A stretch of DNA of 37,793 bases. It comes from a virus. Both the position numbers and the translations under genes were made by a program. The notes under the pieces are model-generated. The model was not told the origin of the DNA. It saw only the letters and a program-made list of their open reading frames with translations, and did no database searches. Below are positions 3,021-35,298 of this stretch, one piece after another. The DNA lies in the UHGV virus genome UHGV-0272092; one strand, given 5' to 3'. Each line of letters starts with the position of its first letter. Positions within the stretch are counted from its first letter, which is position 1.

Positions 3021-3503
3021 CTATCTGGTCAAAGTGTCGTACTGTTTTTCGCAGACTCTTCCGGCTTCGGCTGCCCGGTCAGCATACTCTGCCAGTTGTC
3101 TGTTTCTCTCGAGAGATTTGCTGAGCACGTCGGCAAGCAAAACTCCGGTGTCTGCGGCTGACGACCCAGCGCCGACAATGGCGTTATACTGCCTGAGCTG
3201 CTCACGGATGGCAAAGAGTTGTTGCTGCAACCGGCCAGCGCTAGCGGCAGCATCAAGAGCATCATTGCGCGCCTGGTCGATCCTCTGCTGAGCTTCACGT
3301 TCATTGGTCACTTTCTCCTGTTCGTAGTACTGACGAACTTTGTCTTCTTCGGCTTTGCGGTCTTCTTCCGCCTGAGCATACCCGGCATCGTACTGGCGAC
3401 TGCCGTGTATATTCCAGGCAACCACTCCTGATATGACCAGAACAGCAAGCACTGCCACGATAAGAAACTGTTTCCAGTATGCTTTTACGAATGCCCAGAT
3501 CAT
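3021..3503 (-). CDS. Rz-like i-spanin
   Basis: N-terminal transmembrane helix ([18 protein letters not shown]) followed by a charged coiled-coil region; directly downstream of the endolysin with overlapping start/stop. Confidence 0.7.
3029..3265 (-). CDS. Rz1-like o-spanin lipoprotein, embedded in Rz in an alternate frame
   Basis: Lipobox LPLALAGC followed by a Pro/Ser-rich region, fully nested in the Rz gene. Start taken at MMLLML; the track ORF opens at 3304. Confidence 0.6.
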   Translation of the reverse strand: MMLLMLPLALAGCSNNSLPSVSSSGSITPLSALGRQPQTPEFCLPTCSANLSRETDNWQSMLTGQPKPEESAKNSTTL

Positions 3504-5099: not shown

Positions 5100-5126
5100 C
5101 CCGCAAAATATTGCGGGCTTTTTTTT
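5100..5126 (+). terminator. plus-strand intrinsic-terminator-like hairpin overlapping the tailspike stop codon
   Basis: CCCGCAA-AATA-TTGCGGG followed by C and eight T. No annotated plus-strand gene lies upstream. Confidence 0.5.
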
Positions 5127-8100
5127 AACGTTCTTCCAGAGACTGAATCCGCTCTTTTATCTTATCCATTTCTCTGCGCTGCCATGCTGCCTCGATATAG
5201 AATAAGAGATCAGGTCTGACCCCCCATCTAGATCCTGCTGGCGTTATTTCAACGCGCTCAATGATGTCTTCCATTACCATCACTGGATTATCATCCTCAT
5301 CAACAATGATGCTCCCGTCATTATCAGTCAGCGGCATTTCCCTTTGGCCAGTAATGACGTCATCATATACTGCGGGATAATCGTCATAGCAAAGAAAGGC
5401 ATAGCGGCATGTTGTGCTTTCTTCTTCCATGAGTCCGTGAGAAATAAGAACATCACGAAGTTGCTGCGCGATTACACCATGATGTATCCTCGCCCCTTCT
5501 TCCCCCTTTATAGCGACAGCGTTCAGCCATTTATAAGCGATATACCTGACGTCACCCCAGGCATCCAGCAATGCTTCGTCAGGAGAGACCGGCTCTGTCT
5601 TTAATGTTCCGTCACTGGTAACCACAGGATTGGAGCCAAGATAAACTGTCGAGAACCTGTTTCCCGGACCACCAAGAGCATTTACATTATCAAGATAAGG
5701 TTTAACATCTCCGTTCTCAAAAAGATGTTCGAGTGCGTTATATACCGCGCGACGTGGAGTACTGCTTCCGGAACCATGCAACGTTATCATTGCACCATCT
5801 GCTGAAGACGTTATTTCACCGCCGCTAACGATTAATCTCTGAGCGGTAACATCATCAGACGGTACTTTCTTCGCAATAATGGCGTAATTACCCTCAAGTT
5901 TGACTTCCGCGCGAACTTGTCCTGATGTACCTGCATGGACAGTCAGTGACTGGACGGCAACATCATCTGTGAAATCAACGGGTACAGGAACCGTCCTCAC
6001 GCCTGACGTCGACATAAAAGTAGGAAGCGTTCTGTTAGGAGTGGCTCCGTAGACAAAATCCCTTGAAACAAATTCTTCCTGTTTAATTTTCACCCTGAAA
6101 CAATACAAATCAGCCGGGTGACCATCGTGAACATAAGGATATTTTCTGTTGTTATCCCCTATGCTCCATGGGTTTAGAAAGTCTTCCCCACCGAAAATGT
6201 AGTACAGCCAGTTGTCTTTGATACAAACTGAACCAACACCAACTGCAGAGTTAACTATTCCGCCCTGATAAATCTGATCAGTAACATTAACCCACTCTAC
6301 ATTATCCAGACTCCACTCATTGACGTTAACTCTGGTCATAAATGTTCTTGGATAATTTCCTGCATAACGGTTATCAGGTTCTCCTCCTTCCCACTCACCA
6401 AATGCGCGCTCACTGCCAAAAATAATCAGCTCATCGCCAACTTTGGCAAAAGGAAGGTTTGAGTGATGAACATTATTTGGGAAGCGAAGAGAATTCCATG
6501 ATGTACCTAAATCAGAGCTTCTGTGCAATGAACTACCGGGTTGAGTACTTAATGTCCCCCTGGTCGTCAGATACAGAATGCCATCATAATATTTTACACA
6601 TGGCTCAGATGCATTCGCCTCATATTCTGCAGGTATGCGTCTGCGAACAAAGCTACCAGGAGAACCGAAAGCATCAGAGAAATAGAGTATCCCAAGCTCG
6701 CGTGGACCAATATCACCATTATGGTAGCCAACAGCAAAACTGTTATCGCTAATCGTCGCAAAACTGTGAATCTCAGTAACAGGAGTGCTTCCGTCAACAA
6801 AAGAAGGAATAGTTCCAAGACTGGTTTTTCTCCATGGTGACGAGTGAAATGATGTACCAAAACTCCAGTATCTACCCTCGTTATTCTGATCCACATCCTG
6901 GGTATTTTGCGTCGTAACTGTAAAAGTATTTTTATCAATAACAGTAGTCACCGTCATATTCCCGGTAACACCTGTAACACCAGAGTTTGAGAAGTTGACA
7001 AAATCACCAGCAAATAATCCGTGATCAGTAATGCGAATATAAGCGACTTGCTGATTTGCTGCTTTCGTTATACCACCATAAGCGCGAAGGCTGCGACTCA
7101 TTGGGCGATCCCACAACTCTGCAACCTGCAGTTTATTTCCGCTCACGGTCCGCGTCTCAATTACAGCAAAAAGGCGATTTCTGACAACCCCCATACTCAT
7201 GCAGTGATAGTTAACTGTGGGATAGTTTTCATGTAAATCTGTAAGCCATTCCGGCGTTGTCCAGGTCTTCCCGTCATCTCCTGAGCGAACCCATGCAACA
7301 TGGAGGTTATTTACACCATGGCGGTCTCCAGCCATAAAAGGCGCATAGATGACATTGTCATATACAAACGTTTTATCCTGCGTCCAGGCGTTGTACCACG
7401 GTGTATCTGTAATTTTAAATAACTCTCCCTGGATAAAATCTTCAGAAGCATAAAAAAGAGGCTGGCCCGGTATTCTCTCAAATAAAAAACGAGCATTTTT
7501 AAATCGACTGACATCCGGAAGAGTTGATACTTTAAAAGTAAGCCCTAATCCGTCAATTTTATAACCTGGAGATGAGGCTTCAAGGCACGCGCTTATTGCA
7601 GTGGAATCGTCATTTATACCATCACCAACAGCTCCAAAATCTTTGGGGCTAATAGCATCACGCATTTTATCCTGGAACGTTCGGTACACAGCCCCAGAAC
7701 CATACTGAATAAACCAACCAAAACCACCAACAACCCCGGCGATTGCAGCATCGACATAATTACGCATTGAGCGATTATTTACAGCGTCCTGCTCAAATGA
7801 TGGATCTGCAAGGTTAGAAATTTTGTTTTGCTTTGCATCGTAATATTTTGCAAGCAAAGATGGTTTCATCAATGCACGTCTGAACCACCCAAAACATTGC
7901 TGGATCAGCATCGTCAGGTAGTCAAAGGCATCTTCATGCACTTCGGGGAAAAATTTTCCCTGATTGCGAAGGTCTGTCTCCTGCACTACATCAAGCACAC
8001 GATCTATCGTAATTCGCCATCCAGTAGCAAGCGGAGACGGAAGAACCACAGAACCGCCACTATAAGTGCCCGCCCCAGTTACCGTATAACCGGTATCCAG

Positions 8101-8244
8101 AACCAATTCTGTTACGTTTCCGTTCAGGTCAGACACCTGAACAACCAGGTCTGATTTTCTGAAAATTCGAAAAGTATACGGAAACGATGTCGTAACGCCG
8201 TTACCGGTGTATTCGTTGTGGTCAACTTCGGTTGAGACCGTCAT
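5125..8244 (-). CDS. tailspike / tail fibre protein (1039 aa), probable polysaccharide depolymerase with C-terminal chaperone-like domain
   Basis: Size, position as last virion gene, and a C-terminal segment (GVIAQQLRDVL...) reminiscent of intramolecular chaperone domains of tailspikes. Confidence 0.7.
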   Translation of the reverse strand: MTVSTEVDHNEYTGNGVTTSFPYTFRIFRKSDLVVQVSDLNGNVTELVLDTGYTVTGAGTYSGGSVVLPSPLATGWRITIDRVLDVVQETDLRNQGKFFPEVHEDAFDYLTMLIQQCFGWFRRALMKPSLLAKYYDAKQNKISNLADPSFEQDAVNNRSMRNYVDAAIAGVVGGFGWFIQYGSGAVYRTFQDKMRDAISPKDFGAVGDGINDDSTAISACLEASSPGYKIDGLGLTFKVSTLPDVSRFKNARFLFERIPGQPLFYASEDFIQGELFKITDTPWYNAWTQDKTFVYDNVIYAPFMAGDRHGVNNLHVAWVRSGDDGKTWTTPEWLTDLHENYPTVNYHCMSMGVVRNRLFAVIETRTVSGNKLQVAELWDRPMSRSLRAYGGITKAANQQVAYIRITDHGLFAGDFVNFSNSGVTGVTGNMTVTTVIDKNTFTVTTQNTQDVDQNNEGRYWSFGTSFHSSPWRKTSLGTIPSFVDGSTPVTEIHSFATISDNSFAVGYHNGDIGPRELGILYFSDAFGSPGSFVRRRIPAEYEANASEPCVKYYDGILYLTTRGTLSTQPGSSLHRSSDLGTSWNSLRFPNNVHHSNLPFAKVGDELIIFGSERAFGEWEGGEPDNRYAGNYPRTFMTRVNVNEWSLDNVEWVNVTDQIYQGGIVNSAVGVGSVCIKDNWLYYIFGGEDFLNPWSIGDNNRKYPYVHDGHPADLYCFRVKIKQEEFVSRDFVYGATPNRTLPTFMSTSGVRTVPVPVDFTDDVAVQSLTVHAGTSGQVRAEVKLEGNYAIIAKKVPSDDVTAQRLIVSGGEITSSADGAMITLHGSGSSTPRRAVYNALEHLFENGDVKPYLDNVNALGGPGNRFSTVYLGSNPVVTSDGTLKTEPVSPDEALLDAWGDVRYIAYKWLNAVAIKGEEGARIHHGVIAQQLRDVLISHGLMEEESTTCRYAFLCYDDYPAVYDDVITGQREMPLTDNDGSIIVDEDDNPVMVMEDIIERVEITPAGSRWGVRPDLLFYIEAAWQRREMDKIKERIQSLEER

Positions 8245-8308
8245 GTTAAATCTCCAGATAGTCGCAGCACCCGTTGCGCCGCATATCTGGTTATTCTATT
8301 ACCTGGAA

Positions 8309-8319
8309 AACCACATATG
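8309..8319 (-). promoter_or_regulatory. conserved element AACCACATATG upstream of the tailspike gene
   Basis: Identical 11-mer at 24915-24925; preceded by ATTACC-N5 in both copies. Confidence 0.45.
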
Positions 8320-8348
8320 GATAGAAAGGATGTAAATACGAATAGATA

Positions 8349-8363
8349 TTACCTTTCAGGTAA
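8349..8363. promoter_or_regulatory. operator-like palindrome TTACCTTTCAGGTAA
   Basis: Perfect 15-bp palindrome, identical to the copy at 24967-24981. Confidence 0.55.
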
Positions 8364-8400
8364 TTTGCAAAACGTGCTGGATAGCAAACAAATTATTTGA

Positions 8401-8420
8401 TACTGTATAAATATACAGTT
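8401..8420. promoter_or_regulatory. LexA (SOS) box TACTGTATAAATATACAGTT
   Basis: CTGT-N8-ACAG with AT-rich centre, 18 of 20 matches to consensus TACTGTATATATATACAGTA. It occupies the spacer between a possible -35 TTGATA (8397-8402) and a weak -10. Confidence 0.7.
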
Positions 8421-8439
8421 ATTGCATGGAGAAGATAAG

Positions 8440-8697
8440 ATGCAGCAGTATCACTATCCACTGGAAGACGGATTTACCGAAAGGATTCACACGCCGGGAG
8501 GCGTCAGGTCACTGGTGGAGGGATCGCACTTGATGAAATTACTCCGGGATCTCGATAAGGATGGATTTAATGTCGATGGCCCACTTGCCGAACTGACTGC
8601 ACTGATTAACTACGTCACCAGCTCACAGATGTCTATGCAGGATCTGCAAACACATCTCGACTATTGTGCCGAACAATTACGAAAACAAACCCGGTAA
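8440..8697 (+). CDS. small LexA-controlled protein (85 aa), candidate antirepressor
   Basis: ATG 8440 with RBS GGAG 8 nt upstream. Plus-strand gene embedded between minus-strand tail genes, directly downstream of the LexA box. Confidence 0.55.
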   Translation: MQQYHYPLEDGFTERIHTPGGVRSLVEGSHLMKLLRDLDKDGFNVDGPLAELTALINYVTSSQMSMQDLQTHLDYCAEQLRKQTR

Positions 8698-8704
8698 ATT
8701 TAAA

Positions 8705-8733
8705 GGCCGCGAAAGCGGCCTGTGACATGTCAC
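8705..8733 (+). promoter_or_regulatory. GNRA-loop hairpin GGCCGC-GAAA-GCGGCC followed by palindrome GTGACATGTCAC (8722-8733)
   Basis: Read from sequence immediately after the stop of the 8440-8697 gene; no T-run follows. Confidence 0.5.
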
Positions 8734-8890
8734 GCTCACGTTATGACAAGCCTATGTACCCTGCTACACCAGATAATATCATAATAACTGCAACAGCAAA
8801 TTCGCCATCGTCAATGATACATTTACGGTTCATAACGCCAAGTGCAACAAGCGCAAACACAACAAGAATAAAAGCAATCATTTCTCATCC

Positions 8891-11365
8891 TTATTGCGGA
8901 GTGACATCCTGTGGTCGCCACCAGTATGTCTGGTTAAACTCTTTCTTCGAACGTTGCTCCATTTTACGCAAATAACCTGGTGAAAAATACTCCTGCATCT
9001 GGTTAAAGATCATGTGATCGAGAGCCGCCTTCAAGTACCAGAGATTCGCACCTGGCATCAGACCTTTCCCCAGCTTAACCAGATCACCACCAGTCTGCTC
9101 ACTCTTCCCTTCCACAGCATTTAACGGTATGCCCTGAGCAATCTTCACTACGTCATCAACCAGACCAGCTACCGGGCCAAGCATCGACGCCAGCGCGCCG
9201 CTTCCGTACCTAGTGTGATCTGACAATAAAAAGTCACCGTAAAGGCCAAGACCACCACCTTTCAGTAGAGCACCAAGCCAAAATTTAGCAGCATCTTCTC
9301 CTGTCATCTCGCGAGGATTACGACCAGACGCAAGGTCGTTAAGTTGCTGCGACAAAGCGCCAAGAATGGTCGTACTGGCAATAAACGTCGCAATATATGC
9401 CGCACGCCCACCAGCAGACGGCATACCCATAGCGCGTGACCAGTGACGCATAACCACCGAGATAGGGAACGATTTAAACAGGAAAACACTTCTCGTTAAT
9501 TCACCTTTCCATGTTCCACGCTGAATACCAGAACCGGTTATCAGTTGCTCACGTGCTCCCGGTGTAATAACAGCCATATCAACTTCTTCAGTTACGGCAC
9601 CGAGCAGTTTACGCATTGCCTCAAATTTCACGCGTTCAGGCTCACCAAGATGTTTAACTGCTGAATCAGGGATACGCATAATGCTTTCCGGTGTCAGCAT
9701 CGTATTATTACCGTTCCCCCAGTCCTCCTGTTTCGCCAGCTTCCATACGCTCCAGTCTGTGTCAGTAATCCCTTTGCTTTTCAGGATACGAAAATCAGAG
9801 TCATCGAGGCTACGAAGGTCTGGTGTACGTGACACTACTTCTCCCAGGCTTCCCATCATGGTTACGCCATAGGCGCGCTTGTGCGCATCTGACCATGCTG
9901 TAAGCCCACTGGCACGCATTACCGCCGTTGCCGCCCAACGAGACACTGACGGCCCCATATTATCCATCGCCCAGCGGTTAACGCTGCCAAGTAGAGATTC
10001 CATCGCCAGACCAGCGCGGCGCGCCCGCGCAAGTTCTGTACGGTTCGTTGGGTCCATAGCTTCAAGCTGGTTGCGGAATAACTGGTTCATTGGAAGGTTG
10101 GTAACCTTCGCAGACAGATACATGGTTCCAAGATCAGAGAACGATGACAGCAACGCGGATCCGAGTCTGCTGGCAACCAGCCAGTTGCGGATATTGTCAG
10201 ACCATCGCGCGATGTGCGGATTCGCTACAGGCTGTGTCTTTCCGGAAATAAAGTTGTACAGATTCTCTGTGTTGTTCGCCAGCCGCTCGACTTTACCGGT
10301 TTTACTCGGGTTAGCTGTTGCCGTTTCTGCCTTCACCTGATCAAGAAGAGAGCGGAAAACATGATCGGGGTTTGGGCCATATGTTTCCACCAGTGCAATA
10401 TCTTTACTGATACCTTCCAGGTGACCGACCATGATTTCCCATAGAGAGCGATCGCCATAAAGTTGCTGATATTGCAGATAGGAATCTGCATCTTTGAAAT
10501 GTATCTGTCGTGATGCATTACCACGGTTAGCACGTGCGCCGGAAATTCGCATTCCGGTATCAGTAAGCTTATTCAGCCCACCAGTAGCGATCGTGTTATA
10601 AGCCTCTCCAAGAAATGAAGACAACTCGGCATCGTTCATCAGTTGTCCATCGGCTCGGATATAATATTTGCGATCCAGCTTACCTATAACATCGCTAACC
10701 CACTTATCCTTTGATACTGCCCCAACCTTTTCCATAGAATGATGTTGAGGGATCCCCCAGTTTTCGAGATAGCCAATGTCCCCACCAGCATCATTAAACC
10801 GGCGGCGCAGCAGCTCTGTAACTTCTCTCCACGCCTTAGCACCGTTTCTTGCTTTAGCATTGCCAGTATTTTGCCCCCGCATTTCATATACCAGGTCACG
10901 TACGCCCGCTTCATCTTCAAACAGACCAAAAAAGCGAGGATCAACTGCTTCGAATGCCTCCTGCAATTGACTCAATGCATAATCACGGGTGGCTTTTGTT
11001 CTGGATTCAACAGAGAGGAAATTAGATTTACCGTCTGCATTAAAAGCTATAGTACGGTTAAGAGCGCCAAGTTTCCCATCAGCCCCTTGATAGCTATTGA
11101 TAAATTTATCCAATCTCTGACGCGCGGCTATAGTGAGAGCCACACGACGTTTCTTTAATGCCGCTTCTCGCTGTAATTCTTCAGATGCCAATTGTGCTGC
11201 TCGATATAGCCGCTCTGATTCGGAAAGTTGTCTCCACGACATCGGGTCATCACGAGCAATGGAGCGCATATTTCGATAAATGCGGTCTTCAATGTTCTGT
11301 ATTTCTCGCGCCGTTAACGTGCGCTGCGCCGCCTGCTGGACCGCTTGTATACATTCCTGTCTCAT
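8891..11365 (-). CDS. internal virion / ejection protein (824 aa)
   Basis: Large protein in the block between tail tube and tailspike, matching the T7 gp15/gp16 position. Confidence 0.5.
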   Translation of the reverse strand: MRQECIQAVQQAAQRTLTAREIQNIEDRIYRNMRSIARDDPMSWRQLSESERLYRAAQLASEELQREAALKKRRVALTIAARQRLDKFINSYQGADGKLGALNRTIAFNADGKSNFLSVESRTKATRDYALSQLQEAFEAVDPRFFGLFEDEAGVRDLVYEMRGQNTGNAKARNGAKAWREVTELLRRRFNDAGGDIGYLENWGIPQHHSMEKVGAVSKDKWVSDVIGKLDRKYYIRADGQLMNDAELSSFLGEAYNTIATGGLNKLTDTGMRISGARANRGNASRQIHFKDADSYLQYQQLYGDRSLWEIMVGHLEGISKDIALVETYGPNPDHVFRSLLDQVKAETATANPSKTGKVERLANNTENLYNFISGKTQPVANPHIARWSDNIRNWLVASRLGSALLSSFSDLGTMYLSAKVTNLPMNQLFRNQLEAMDPTNRTELARARRAGLAMESLLGSVNRWAMDNMGPSVSRWAATAVMRASGLTAWSDAHKRAYGVTMMGSLGEVVSRTPDLRSLDDSDFRILKSKGITDTDWSVWKLAKQEDWGNGNNTMLTPESIMRIPDSAVKHLGEPERVKFEAMRKLLGAVTEEVDMAVITPGAREQLITGSGIQRGTWKGELTRSVFLFKSFPISVVMRHWSRAMGMPSAGGRAAYIATFIASTTILGALSQQLNDLASGRNPREMTGEDAAKFWLGALLKGGGLGLYGDFLLSDHTRYGSGALASMLGPVAGLVDDVVKIAQGIPLNAVEGKSEQTGGDLVKLGKGLMPGANLWYLKAALDHMIFNQMQEYFSPGYLRKMEQRSKKEFNQTYWWRPQDVTPQ

Positions 11366-20932: not shown

Positions 20933-20983
20933 CTTCTTTCTCCATTAGTGGGTCTGTTACGACCCACAGGTTAATAACAGGCG

Positions 20984-24876: not shown

Positions 24877-24914
24877 ATCAATGACTCCGTACGCAATTAA
24901 ATTATTACCAATTT

Positions 24915-24925
24915 AACCACATATG
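24915..24925 (-). promoter_or_regulatory. conserved element AACCACATATG upstream of the head operon
   Basis: Identical to 8309-8319; preceded by ATTACC-N5. Confidence 0.45.
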
Positions 24926-24966
24926 ATTTATTTATCGTAGGTAGTTGACATTTAACGCACAAATTA

Positions 24967-24981
24967 TTACCTTTCAGGTAA
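24967..24981. promoter_or_regulatory. operator-like palindrome TTACCTTTCAGGTAA
   Basis: Identical to the copy at 8349-8363. Confidence 0.55.
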
Positions 24982-34461: not shown

Positions 34462-34523
34462 TCACCCATAAGGTAACAAAAATCAAGGATAGTTACCTAT
34501 GAGGTGCATTTACCTGTTGGGTA
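34462..34523. promoter_or_regulatory. OR-like operator cluster with three sites: TCACCCATAAGGTAA (34462-34476), TTACCTATGAGGTGC (34493-34507), TTACCTGTTGGGTAA (34509-34523)
   Basis: Three 15-bp sites in the divergent intergenic region between the Cro-like and repressor genes. Confidence 0.65.
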
Positions 34524-34579
34524 ATATTGCTTTAAATTGAATCATCTACTGATTCATATATGAGGCGATTTTCCAGAAA

Positions 34580-35164
34580 ATGAAAAGTATCCAGGACGTC
34601 CGCAGGCAAAATCTCAACGACTTGATCGACCGTGAATTCAATGGTGTTCAGACGCGGATGGCAGAAAAACTTGGAACTCAGGCAAATCTGGTAAACCGCT
34701 GGGCTCTTGGCAAGAAGGTTATCGGCGACCAGGTTGCACGAAAAATTGAAGCTGCCGCCAATAAACCCCGTAACTGGCTTGATATTGATCGTTCGCTTTC
34801 TCAGGAGGGTTTTCAGCCTGTCGGCCCGAGCGATATAGGTCAGCTGGCGGCTCACAACCTGGAACGCTGGATGAGCGAAAGCCGCGACCTTTCAACACAG
34901 GGAAAACTTCACCGCGCATCCGGCGTCGCCCAGGTGACAATCAGCCGCCTGTTAAACAATGAGGTCAGCGTTTCCATTTCCACCCTGGAGAATGTTGCAT
35001 CCGCATTCGGGCGTCACGGATATGAACTACTGATTCACCCGCACGACCCTGCGACTATCAACTATGACCGCTCACGCTACGCATTGTTACCCGAAACCGA
35101 GAAAGCAAAGATCGAAAGTTACATTGAATTTGTCATCAACCAGAACGAAAAAAGCAAACAATAA
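34580..35164 (+). CDS. prophage repressor, tandem HTH domains, no S24 peptidase domain
   Basis: Two XRE-type HTH-like segments (TRMAEKLGTQANLVNRWALGKK and ASGVAQVTISRLLNNEVSVS); no Ala-Gly / Ser-Lys autocleavage signature. Confidence 0.65.
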   Translation: MKSIQDVRRQNLNDLIDREFNGVQTRMAEKLGTQANLVNRWALGKKVIGDQVARKIEAAANKPRNWLDIDRSLSQEGFQPVGPSDIGQLAAHNLERWMSESRDLSTQGKLHRASGVAQVTISRLLNNEVSVSISTLENVASAFGRHGYELLIHPHDPATINYDRSRYALLPETEKAKIESYIEFVINQNEKSKQ

Positions 35165-35221: not shown

Positions 35222-35298
35222 TTACCTTACGGGTAATTTTTTTAACTCATATCTATTGACACCAAACCAAATAAGCATAATTATTACCCCAACGGTAA
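35222..35298 (+). promoter_or_regulatory. OL-like region: operators TTACCTTACGGGTAA (35222-35236) and TTACCCCAACGGTAA (35284-35298) flanking a sigma70-like promoter (-35 TTGACA 35256-35261)
   Basis: TTGACA followed 14-16 nt later by CATAAT/ATAATT; the second operator overlaps the start region. Confidence 0.6.

Follow-up and report, generated by a model that had tools for sequence, protein, structure and literature searches.

An SPC32H-type antirepressor gene behind a conserved LexA box in an Escherichia coli Uetakevirus

Organization of the ant locus

The DNA analyzed here, a stretch of 37,793 nucleotides (37.8 kb) referred to as the window, represents an epsilon15-like temperate podovirus of E. 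coli that belongs to the genus Uetakevirus. The region described below, which harbors a small gene designated ant, is 95–98.5% identical at the DNA level to the corresponding region of PAS61, TL-2011b, ZX5, phiV10 and other Uetakeviruses of E. coli, and ca. 78–81% identical to that of the Salmonella phages epsilon15, SPN1S, SPC32H and 65FD. The attP core ATTGAGTGGGAATGATT at positions 2894–2910 precedes the integrase gene by ca. 190 bp and is the same core as reported for phiV10, epsilon15 and ZX5. Its target is the 3' end of guaA (PMC9782041). Since the core is intact, the stretch has the arrangement of a free or circular phage rather than that of an integrated prophage with host flanks.

The ant gene (8440–8697, plus strand) lies between the tailspike gene (5125–8244) and the genes of a 46-aa membrane protein (8741–8881) and an 824-aa protein (8891–11365), all three of which are on the minus strand. 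Within 8245–8890, only ant and the gene of the 46-aa membrane protein correspond to annotated genes of related phages. SPC32H, epsilon15, 65FD and BUCT554 likewise have ant on the opposite strand, flanked by the tailspike gene and by the genes of the small membrane protein and the ejection proteins. PAS61 shows the same arrangement with a coding sequence for ant that was called too long.

The reading frame of ant encodes 85 amino acids, starting with an ATG at 8440 and ending with a stop at 8697. It is preceded by the ribosome binding site GGAGAAG (8428–8434), of which the GGAG part is invariant in an alignment of nine phages. The homologues of ant start at the ATG and not at the TTG located upstream at 8422. 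The distance between the ATG and the LexA box discussed below is 19 bp. A plus-strand open reading frame of this size with a good ribosome binding site just behind a LexA box, on the strand opposite to that of the surrounding virion genes, is what the preliminary description of this DNA had reported, and these features were confirmed. In the PAS61 record (OQ921333) a coding sequence of 126 aa is annotated at 3073–3453, equivalent to 8317–8697 of the window. It extends across the LexA box, as PAS61 has TGC in place of the in-frame TGA found at 8398–8400 of the window. This is probably an over-extended gene call, the real start being the conserved ATG. In Tyrion, the ant homologue is annotated as a shortened version of 54 aa.

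A terminator scan combined with folding revealed a G+C-rich hairpin, GGCCGCGAAAGCGGCC, at 8704–8721 between ant and the convergent late operon, with a calculated stability of −17.9 kcal/mol (z = −2.96). A T-run is found on the minus strand only, suggesting that the hairpin acts mainly as a terminator of the late operon, which is how it is annotated in epsilon15. Transcription of ant should end only weakly at this position, and read-through would be antisense to the gene of the 46-aa membrane protein.

LexA box and proposed promoter of ant

Compared to TACTGTATATATATACAGTA, the consensus for LexA of E. coli, the putative LexA (SOS) box TACTGTATAAATATACAGTT at 8401–8420 has two mismatches in 20 positions. 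No other site in the window has three or fewer mismatches from this 20-bp consensus, and the expected number is zero, as 100 dinucleotide-preserving shuffles contained no such site. The looser motif CTGT-N8-ACAG occurs three times in the window (0.56 expected). The two additional copies, at 20954 and 25496, were discarded as probable chance occurrences since their centers are rich in G+C and they deviate from the 20-bp consensus at more than three positions.

For examining conservation, the region between the tailspike gene and ant was aligned for nine Uetakeviruses of Escherichia, Salmonella, Enterobacter and Klebsiella. The overall identity of this intergenic region is 69%, whereas the box arms TGTAT...ATACAGT are invariant in all nine phages. 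A perfect CTGT-N8-ACAG is present at the same position in eight of them, the exception being BUCT711, which has ATGT in its left arm. The center of the box is variable, as expected of a LexA site. The box can be aligned position by position with the SPC32H box, from which it differs in its center (ATAAATAT here, ATGTTTAT in SPC32H). Kim and Ryu reportedly showed LexA binding at the SPC32H ant promoter in 2013 and are said to have listed homologues in other podoviruses. The earlier identification of a near-consensus LexA box is thus well supported by its uniqueness in the window, its match to the consensus and its conservation. That the palindrome would be fortuitous or have nothing to do with LexA, and that the reading frame would be an unrelated accessory gene, is hardly credible: 3 of the 100 shuffles also gave three bare CTGT-N8-ACAG sites, but the 20-bp match appeared in none, the box occupies the same place in nine phages from four host genera, and the reading frame is 87% identical to a crystallized antirepressor.

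The promoter of ant was less easily recognized. Scanning the plus strand around the box for consensus sigma-70 promoters yielded nothing that reached 9/12, and a relaxed scan gave only candidates of 8/12, none of which is conserved. In the preliminary description the box was located between the two hexamers of a possible promoter, and we reconstructed TTGATA-17-TATTGC as the hexamers that were likely meant. This combination scores 8/12, has a poor −10 hexamer and is not conserved in the relatives, so that a position of the box in the promoter spacer has no support from conservation.

The alignment of the nine Uetakeviruses shows further invariant elements in this region: CTGGA.A at 8377–8383, TG at 8398–8399 and T.A..TGT at 8401–8406. 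From these we infer a promoter TGGATA-17-TGnTACTGT for ant, in which a weak −35-like hexamer (TGGATA, 8378–8383, plus strand) would be located 17 bp upstream of TACTGT, and in which the hexamer of an extended −10 element (TG-a-TACTGT, 8398–8406, plus strand) would coincide with the left half-site for LexA. The hexamer TGGATA matches the −35 consensus at only four of six positions and was missed by the consensus scans. Since the transcript must start upstream of the ribosome binding site at 8428, the −10 and start region overlaps the box or lies just before it. With the box on or just after this region, LexA would repress transcription with either set of hexamers.

The ant product and related antirepressors

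The preliminary description stated that the 85-aa protein matches no family that could be named. We found that it is an orthologue of the antirepressor Ant of phage SPC32H, for which a crystal structure is available. Residues 2–84 match chain E of PDB entry 5D50, "Anti-repressor protein" of SPC32H, with an E-value of 4.1e-47, and 74 of the 85 residues (87%) are identical. The sequence is 98% identical to p24 of phiV10. Identities range from 78 to 87% among the compared phages of E. coli, Salmonella and Enterobacter, and the identity to the Klebsiella phage is 64%. In the GenBank record of SPC32H the syntenic gene SPC32H_020, which has the same position and orientation, is annotated as "ant: anti-repressor protein", and the homologues in 65FD and 66FD are annotated as "putative anti-repressor protein". 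Among the searches performed, only that of PDB sequences put a name on the protein. Pfam gave no real family (a hit to DUF724 scored 17.6 bits, below the cut-off of 38.4), and the matching PHROGs entry, phrog_450, is labeled "unknown function".

Antirepressors of the Gifsy and 186/Fels-2 prophages were brought forward in the preliminary description as a parallel. The logic is indeed shared, as the antirepressors of Gifsy-1, -2 and -3 (gftA in Gifsy-2) and Tum of 186/Fels-2 are likewise small LexA-repressed proteins that bind a non-cleavable repressor (PMC3121763, PMC7380047). The true relative, however, is SPC32H Ant from the same phage genus, and the Gifsy and 186/Fels-2 systems belong to another phage type and have another map position. 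Library scans of Pfam, PHROGs and PDB gave no relationship between Ant and the Gifsy antirepressors or Tum.

With respect to position, the locus resembles the immI region (mnt-arc-ant) of P22, another temperate podovirus, where the antirepressor locus is flanked by the tailspike gene on one side and by ejection-protein genes on the other. The Ant protein of P22 has ca. 300 aa and is also controlled by Arc. In contrast, Ant of the phage described here has 85 aa and its gene is not accompanied by adjacent genes for Mnt or Arc, the intergenic region containing only ant and the LexA box.

The repressor

The presumed target of Ant is Rep, a repressor of 194 aa encoded by rep at 34580–35164 on the plus strand. 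Over its full length Rep matches chain A of PDB entry 5D50, "Repressor", with an E-value of 3.5e-42, and its C-terminal part additionally matches entry 5D4Z, indicating that it is the orthologue of SPC32H Rep. The gene of the latter is annotated as rep in the SPC32H record. The two repressors are ca. 42% identical overall. Conservation is highest in the N-terminal part that binds DNA (54% identity) and lowest in the middle domain (34%), the last 40 residues being 48% identical. Identities to the repressors of E. coli Uetakeviruses are 99–100% (99.5% for Rep of ZX5). SPC32H Rep consists of a DNA-binding domain, a dimerization domain and a C-terminal domain for tetramerization and Ant binding (PMC9986798).

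In agreement with the preliminary description, Rep contains two helix-turn-helix-like stretches, at residues 21–61 and 106–147 (Pfam HTH_3), and no LexA-like autocleavage domain: Pfam returned HTH families only and no Peptidase_S24 domain. The second of these stretches aligns with what is named the dimerization domain in SPC32H Rep (PMC9986798). Inactivation by RecA-stimulated self-cleavage, as in lambda and P22, with ant as an accessory gene comparable to P22 ant, is the standard route among lambdoid repressors, and P22 ant, which has an analogous map position, is dispensable for induction (PMC7380047, PMC3121763). For Rep this mechanism is extremely improbable, because the protein does not have the C-terminal S24 peptidase with its Ser/Lys dyad that is found in the cI-type repressors of lambda and P22, and because the solved homologue has a different C-terminus, which serves tetramerization and Ant binding (PMC9986798).

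Putative Rep operators

The palindrome TTACC-N5-GGTAA, with at most one mismatch, is present at 11 positions in the window (2746, 8349, 24967, 28072, 28090, 32161, 32223, 34462, 34510, 35222 and 35284), compared to 0.66 sites expected. The corresponding sites are annotated as "repressor, lysogeny" in the epsilon15 record, and the same palindrome was found in all relatives. These sites are probably the operators of Rep. They flank rep and precede most transcription units, either as pairs or as single sites (32161/32223, 28072/28090, 24967 and 2746). The members of a pair are often 62 bp apart (32161/32223, 35222/35284) or 48 bp (34462/34510). One putative operator cluster, at 34462–34524, lies between rep and a divergent cro-like gene and comprises the sites at 34462 (one mismatch) and 34510. 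A further pair (35222–35298, with sites at 35222 and 35284) is located downstream of rep and upstream of the exo/recT operon.

The divergence between the two Rep proteins was also considered as a sign of different immunity specificity. This explanation was rejected: the recognition segment NLVNRW is invariant in the alignment of Rep with its relatives, and the palindrome is the same across these phages, so that the low identity of the repressors does not mean that they have different operator specificities.

One putative operator, at 8349–8363, lies upstream of both the ant promoter and the divergent tailspike gene and is conserved in the relatives. The distance to the inferred −35 hexamer of ant is 15 bp and that to the tailspike start is ca. 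105 bp. Since the hairpin at 8704–8721 should end transcription of the upstream late operon, the tailspike gene must be transcribed from a separate promoter, which is a more probable target of the operator than ant. The site is part of a two-part module that occurs at 8297–8363 and at 24899–24981, preceding the tailspike gene and the portal operon alike. It consists of TATTACC-N5-AACCACATATG followed 50–62 bp further on by TATTACCTTTCAGGTAA. At both places epsilon15 has an annotated IHF site beside the repressor site. The module may represent a shared design of late promoters that are under control of Rep.

Proposed SOS switch

The Rep/Ant/LexA switch of SPC32H is the closest known system (Kim & Ryu 2013, J Virol 87:11775; Kim et al. 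2016, PNAS 113:E2480; PDB 5D50, 5D4Z). As described in later articles, the SOS response leads to self-cleavage of LexA, which permits production of Ant, and Ant in turn inhibits the repressor by protein–protein contact (PMC7380047, citing Kim & Ryu 2013). Rep binds DNA as a tetramer, and this tetramer is broken when two Rep dimers are bound by a tetramer of Ant (PMC9638917, citing Kim et al. 2016). The C-terminal domain of SPC32H Rep carries both tetramerization and Ant binding (PMC9986798).

The scheme in which LexA represses ant and Ant inactivates Rep very probably applies to the phage described here. Both Ant and Rep are orthologous to chains of the 5D50 structure, ant is syntenic, and the LexA box is conserved throughout the genus. 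These observations support the proposal in the preliminary description that a LexA-repressed antirepressor is combined with a non-cleavable repressor. The two phages belong to the same genus and share the position and strand of ant, the distance between box and start codon, homology over the full length of Rep and the operator palindrome; they differ in that the host is E. coli in the present case and in the divergence of Rep to ca. 42% identity.

By analogy with SPC32H, LexA of the host would be bound at 8401–8420 in a lysogen, overlapping the promoter and start region of ant and keeping the gene silent, and Rep would occupy the TTACC-N5-GGTAA operators, by which the lytic genes would be off. 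Upon DNA damage, activated RecA would trigger the self-cleavage of LexA, allowing transcription of ant. The Ant protein would then bind Rep directly and break the DNA-binding Rep tetramer, so that the operators would be freed and lytic growth could start. Rep itself is predicted to stay uncleaved. LexA binding, SOS induction of ant and binding of Ant to Rep are thus all expected for this phage from its likeness to SPC32H, the last of these being an extrapolation since the two Rep proteins are only ca. 42% identical. Phage ZX5, a near-identical phage of E. coli, is inducible by mitomycin C (PMC9782041). This is consistent with the scheme and is no proof of it.

The difference in conservation between the two proteins raises the question whether Rep is the main target of Ant. 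An ant gene that is controlled by LexA could act mainly in trans on other prophages, or Rep could be insensitive to Ant and the phage could use another induction route. Ant is 87% conserved with respect to SPC32H, compared to ca. 42% for Rep, and trans-acting antirepressors have been documented for the Gifsy and Fels prophages (PMC3121763). Furthermore, some relatives possess a second antirepressor, of the Bro-N type, beside ant, and overexpression of the Bro-N protein of ZX5 pushed this phage towards lysis (PMC9782041). However, the window contains no Bro-N gene, which leaves ant as the sole recognizable antirepressor gene. Moreover, a homologue of ant and one of Rep were found together in all Uetakevirus records that were examined for both, the lists of matches overlapping almost completely. 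In SPC32H, Ant is bound by the C-terminal part of Rep, and this part has retained 48% identity here, with many invariant residues. We consider it very improbable that Ant has another main target than the Rep protein of its own phage or that this Rep is insensitive to it.

Since the Ant proteins are 78–87% identical among the compared phages of E. coli, Salmonella and Enterobacter and the Rep proteins of the E. coli and Salmonella phages only ca. 42%, the action of Ant may extend in trans to other members of the genus. A general role of Ant as inducer of heterologous Uetakevirus prophages, with a possible double lock on ant by LexA and, through the operator at 8349–8363, by Rep, is a tentative extension of the scheme that we rate as rather unlikely. 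If such a double lock is present, there would be positive feedback on ant once Rep has been titrated.

The observation and the interpretation in the preliminary description were right, and the switch is already known and has been structurally solved in a sister phage. Little new biology is therefore added, since genetic and structural work on another phage of this genus has already elucidated the switch. What is of practical use is the transfer of annotation to copies in E. coli. The region 8245–8740 was found in 544 of 5426 complete E. coli genomes (ca. 10%), and the RefSeq label of its genes was "hypothetical protein" in all 12 of the E. coli genomes listed. Transferring the SPC32H annotation to these copies would correct the view of SOS induction in prophages associated with K1 and O157 strains. 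The median number of places matching the region was two per genome.

Bro-N proteins encoded next to ant in related phages

In phiV10 (DQ126339, 247–831), ZX5 and Tyrion, ant is directly followed by a gene for a Bro-N "anti-immunity/anti-repressor" protein. The proteins concerned (phiV10 p23, ZX5 ORF4 and Tyrion gp20) are encoded immediately downstream of ant and differ from Ant by their size of ca. 194 aa and the presence of a Bro-N domain. The gene is absent from the corresponding position in the window (8698–8740). Within phiV10 p23, residues 150–180 are similar to the N-terminal 31 residues of Ant (45% identity, E = 9e-7), and there is a match to phrog_450. The Bro-N protein may share a Rep-binding motif with Ant. 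In both phiV10 and Tyrion a TTACC-N5-GGTAA site is located between ant and the Bro-N gene. The 2022 study of ZX5 tested the Bro-N protein as "the" antirepressor and the small Ant homologue was not mentioned (PMC9782041).

The tailspike gene

The tailspike encoded at 5125–8244 on the minus strand is a K1 endosialidase, as indicated by a Pfam match to End_beta_propel (E = 1e-233) and the presence of a Peptidase_S74 chaperone domain. Over ca. 2.4 kb (77% of the gene), its DNA is 99.5% identical to siaK1 of CUS-3, a P22-like phage, which points to a recent exchange of the receptor-binding module between two podovirus lineages. The same tailspike gene is present in ZX5.
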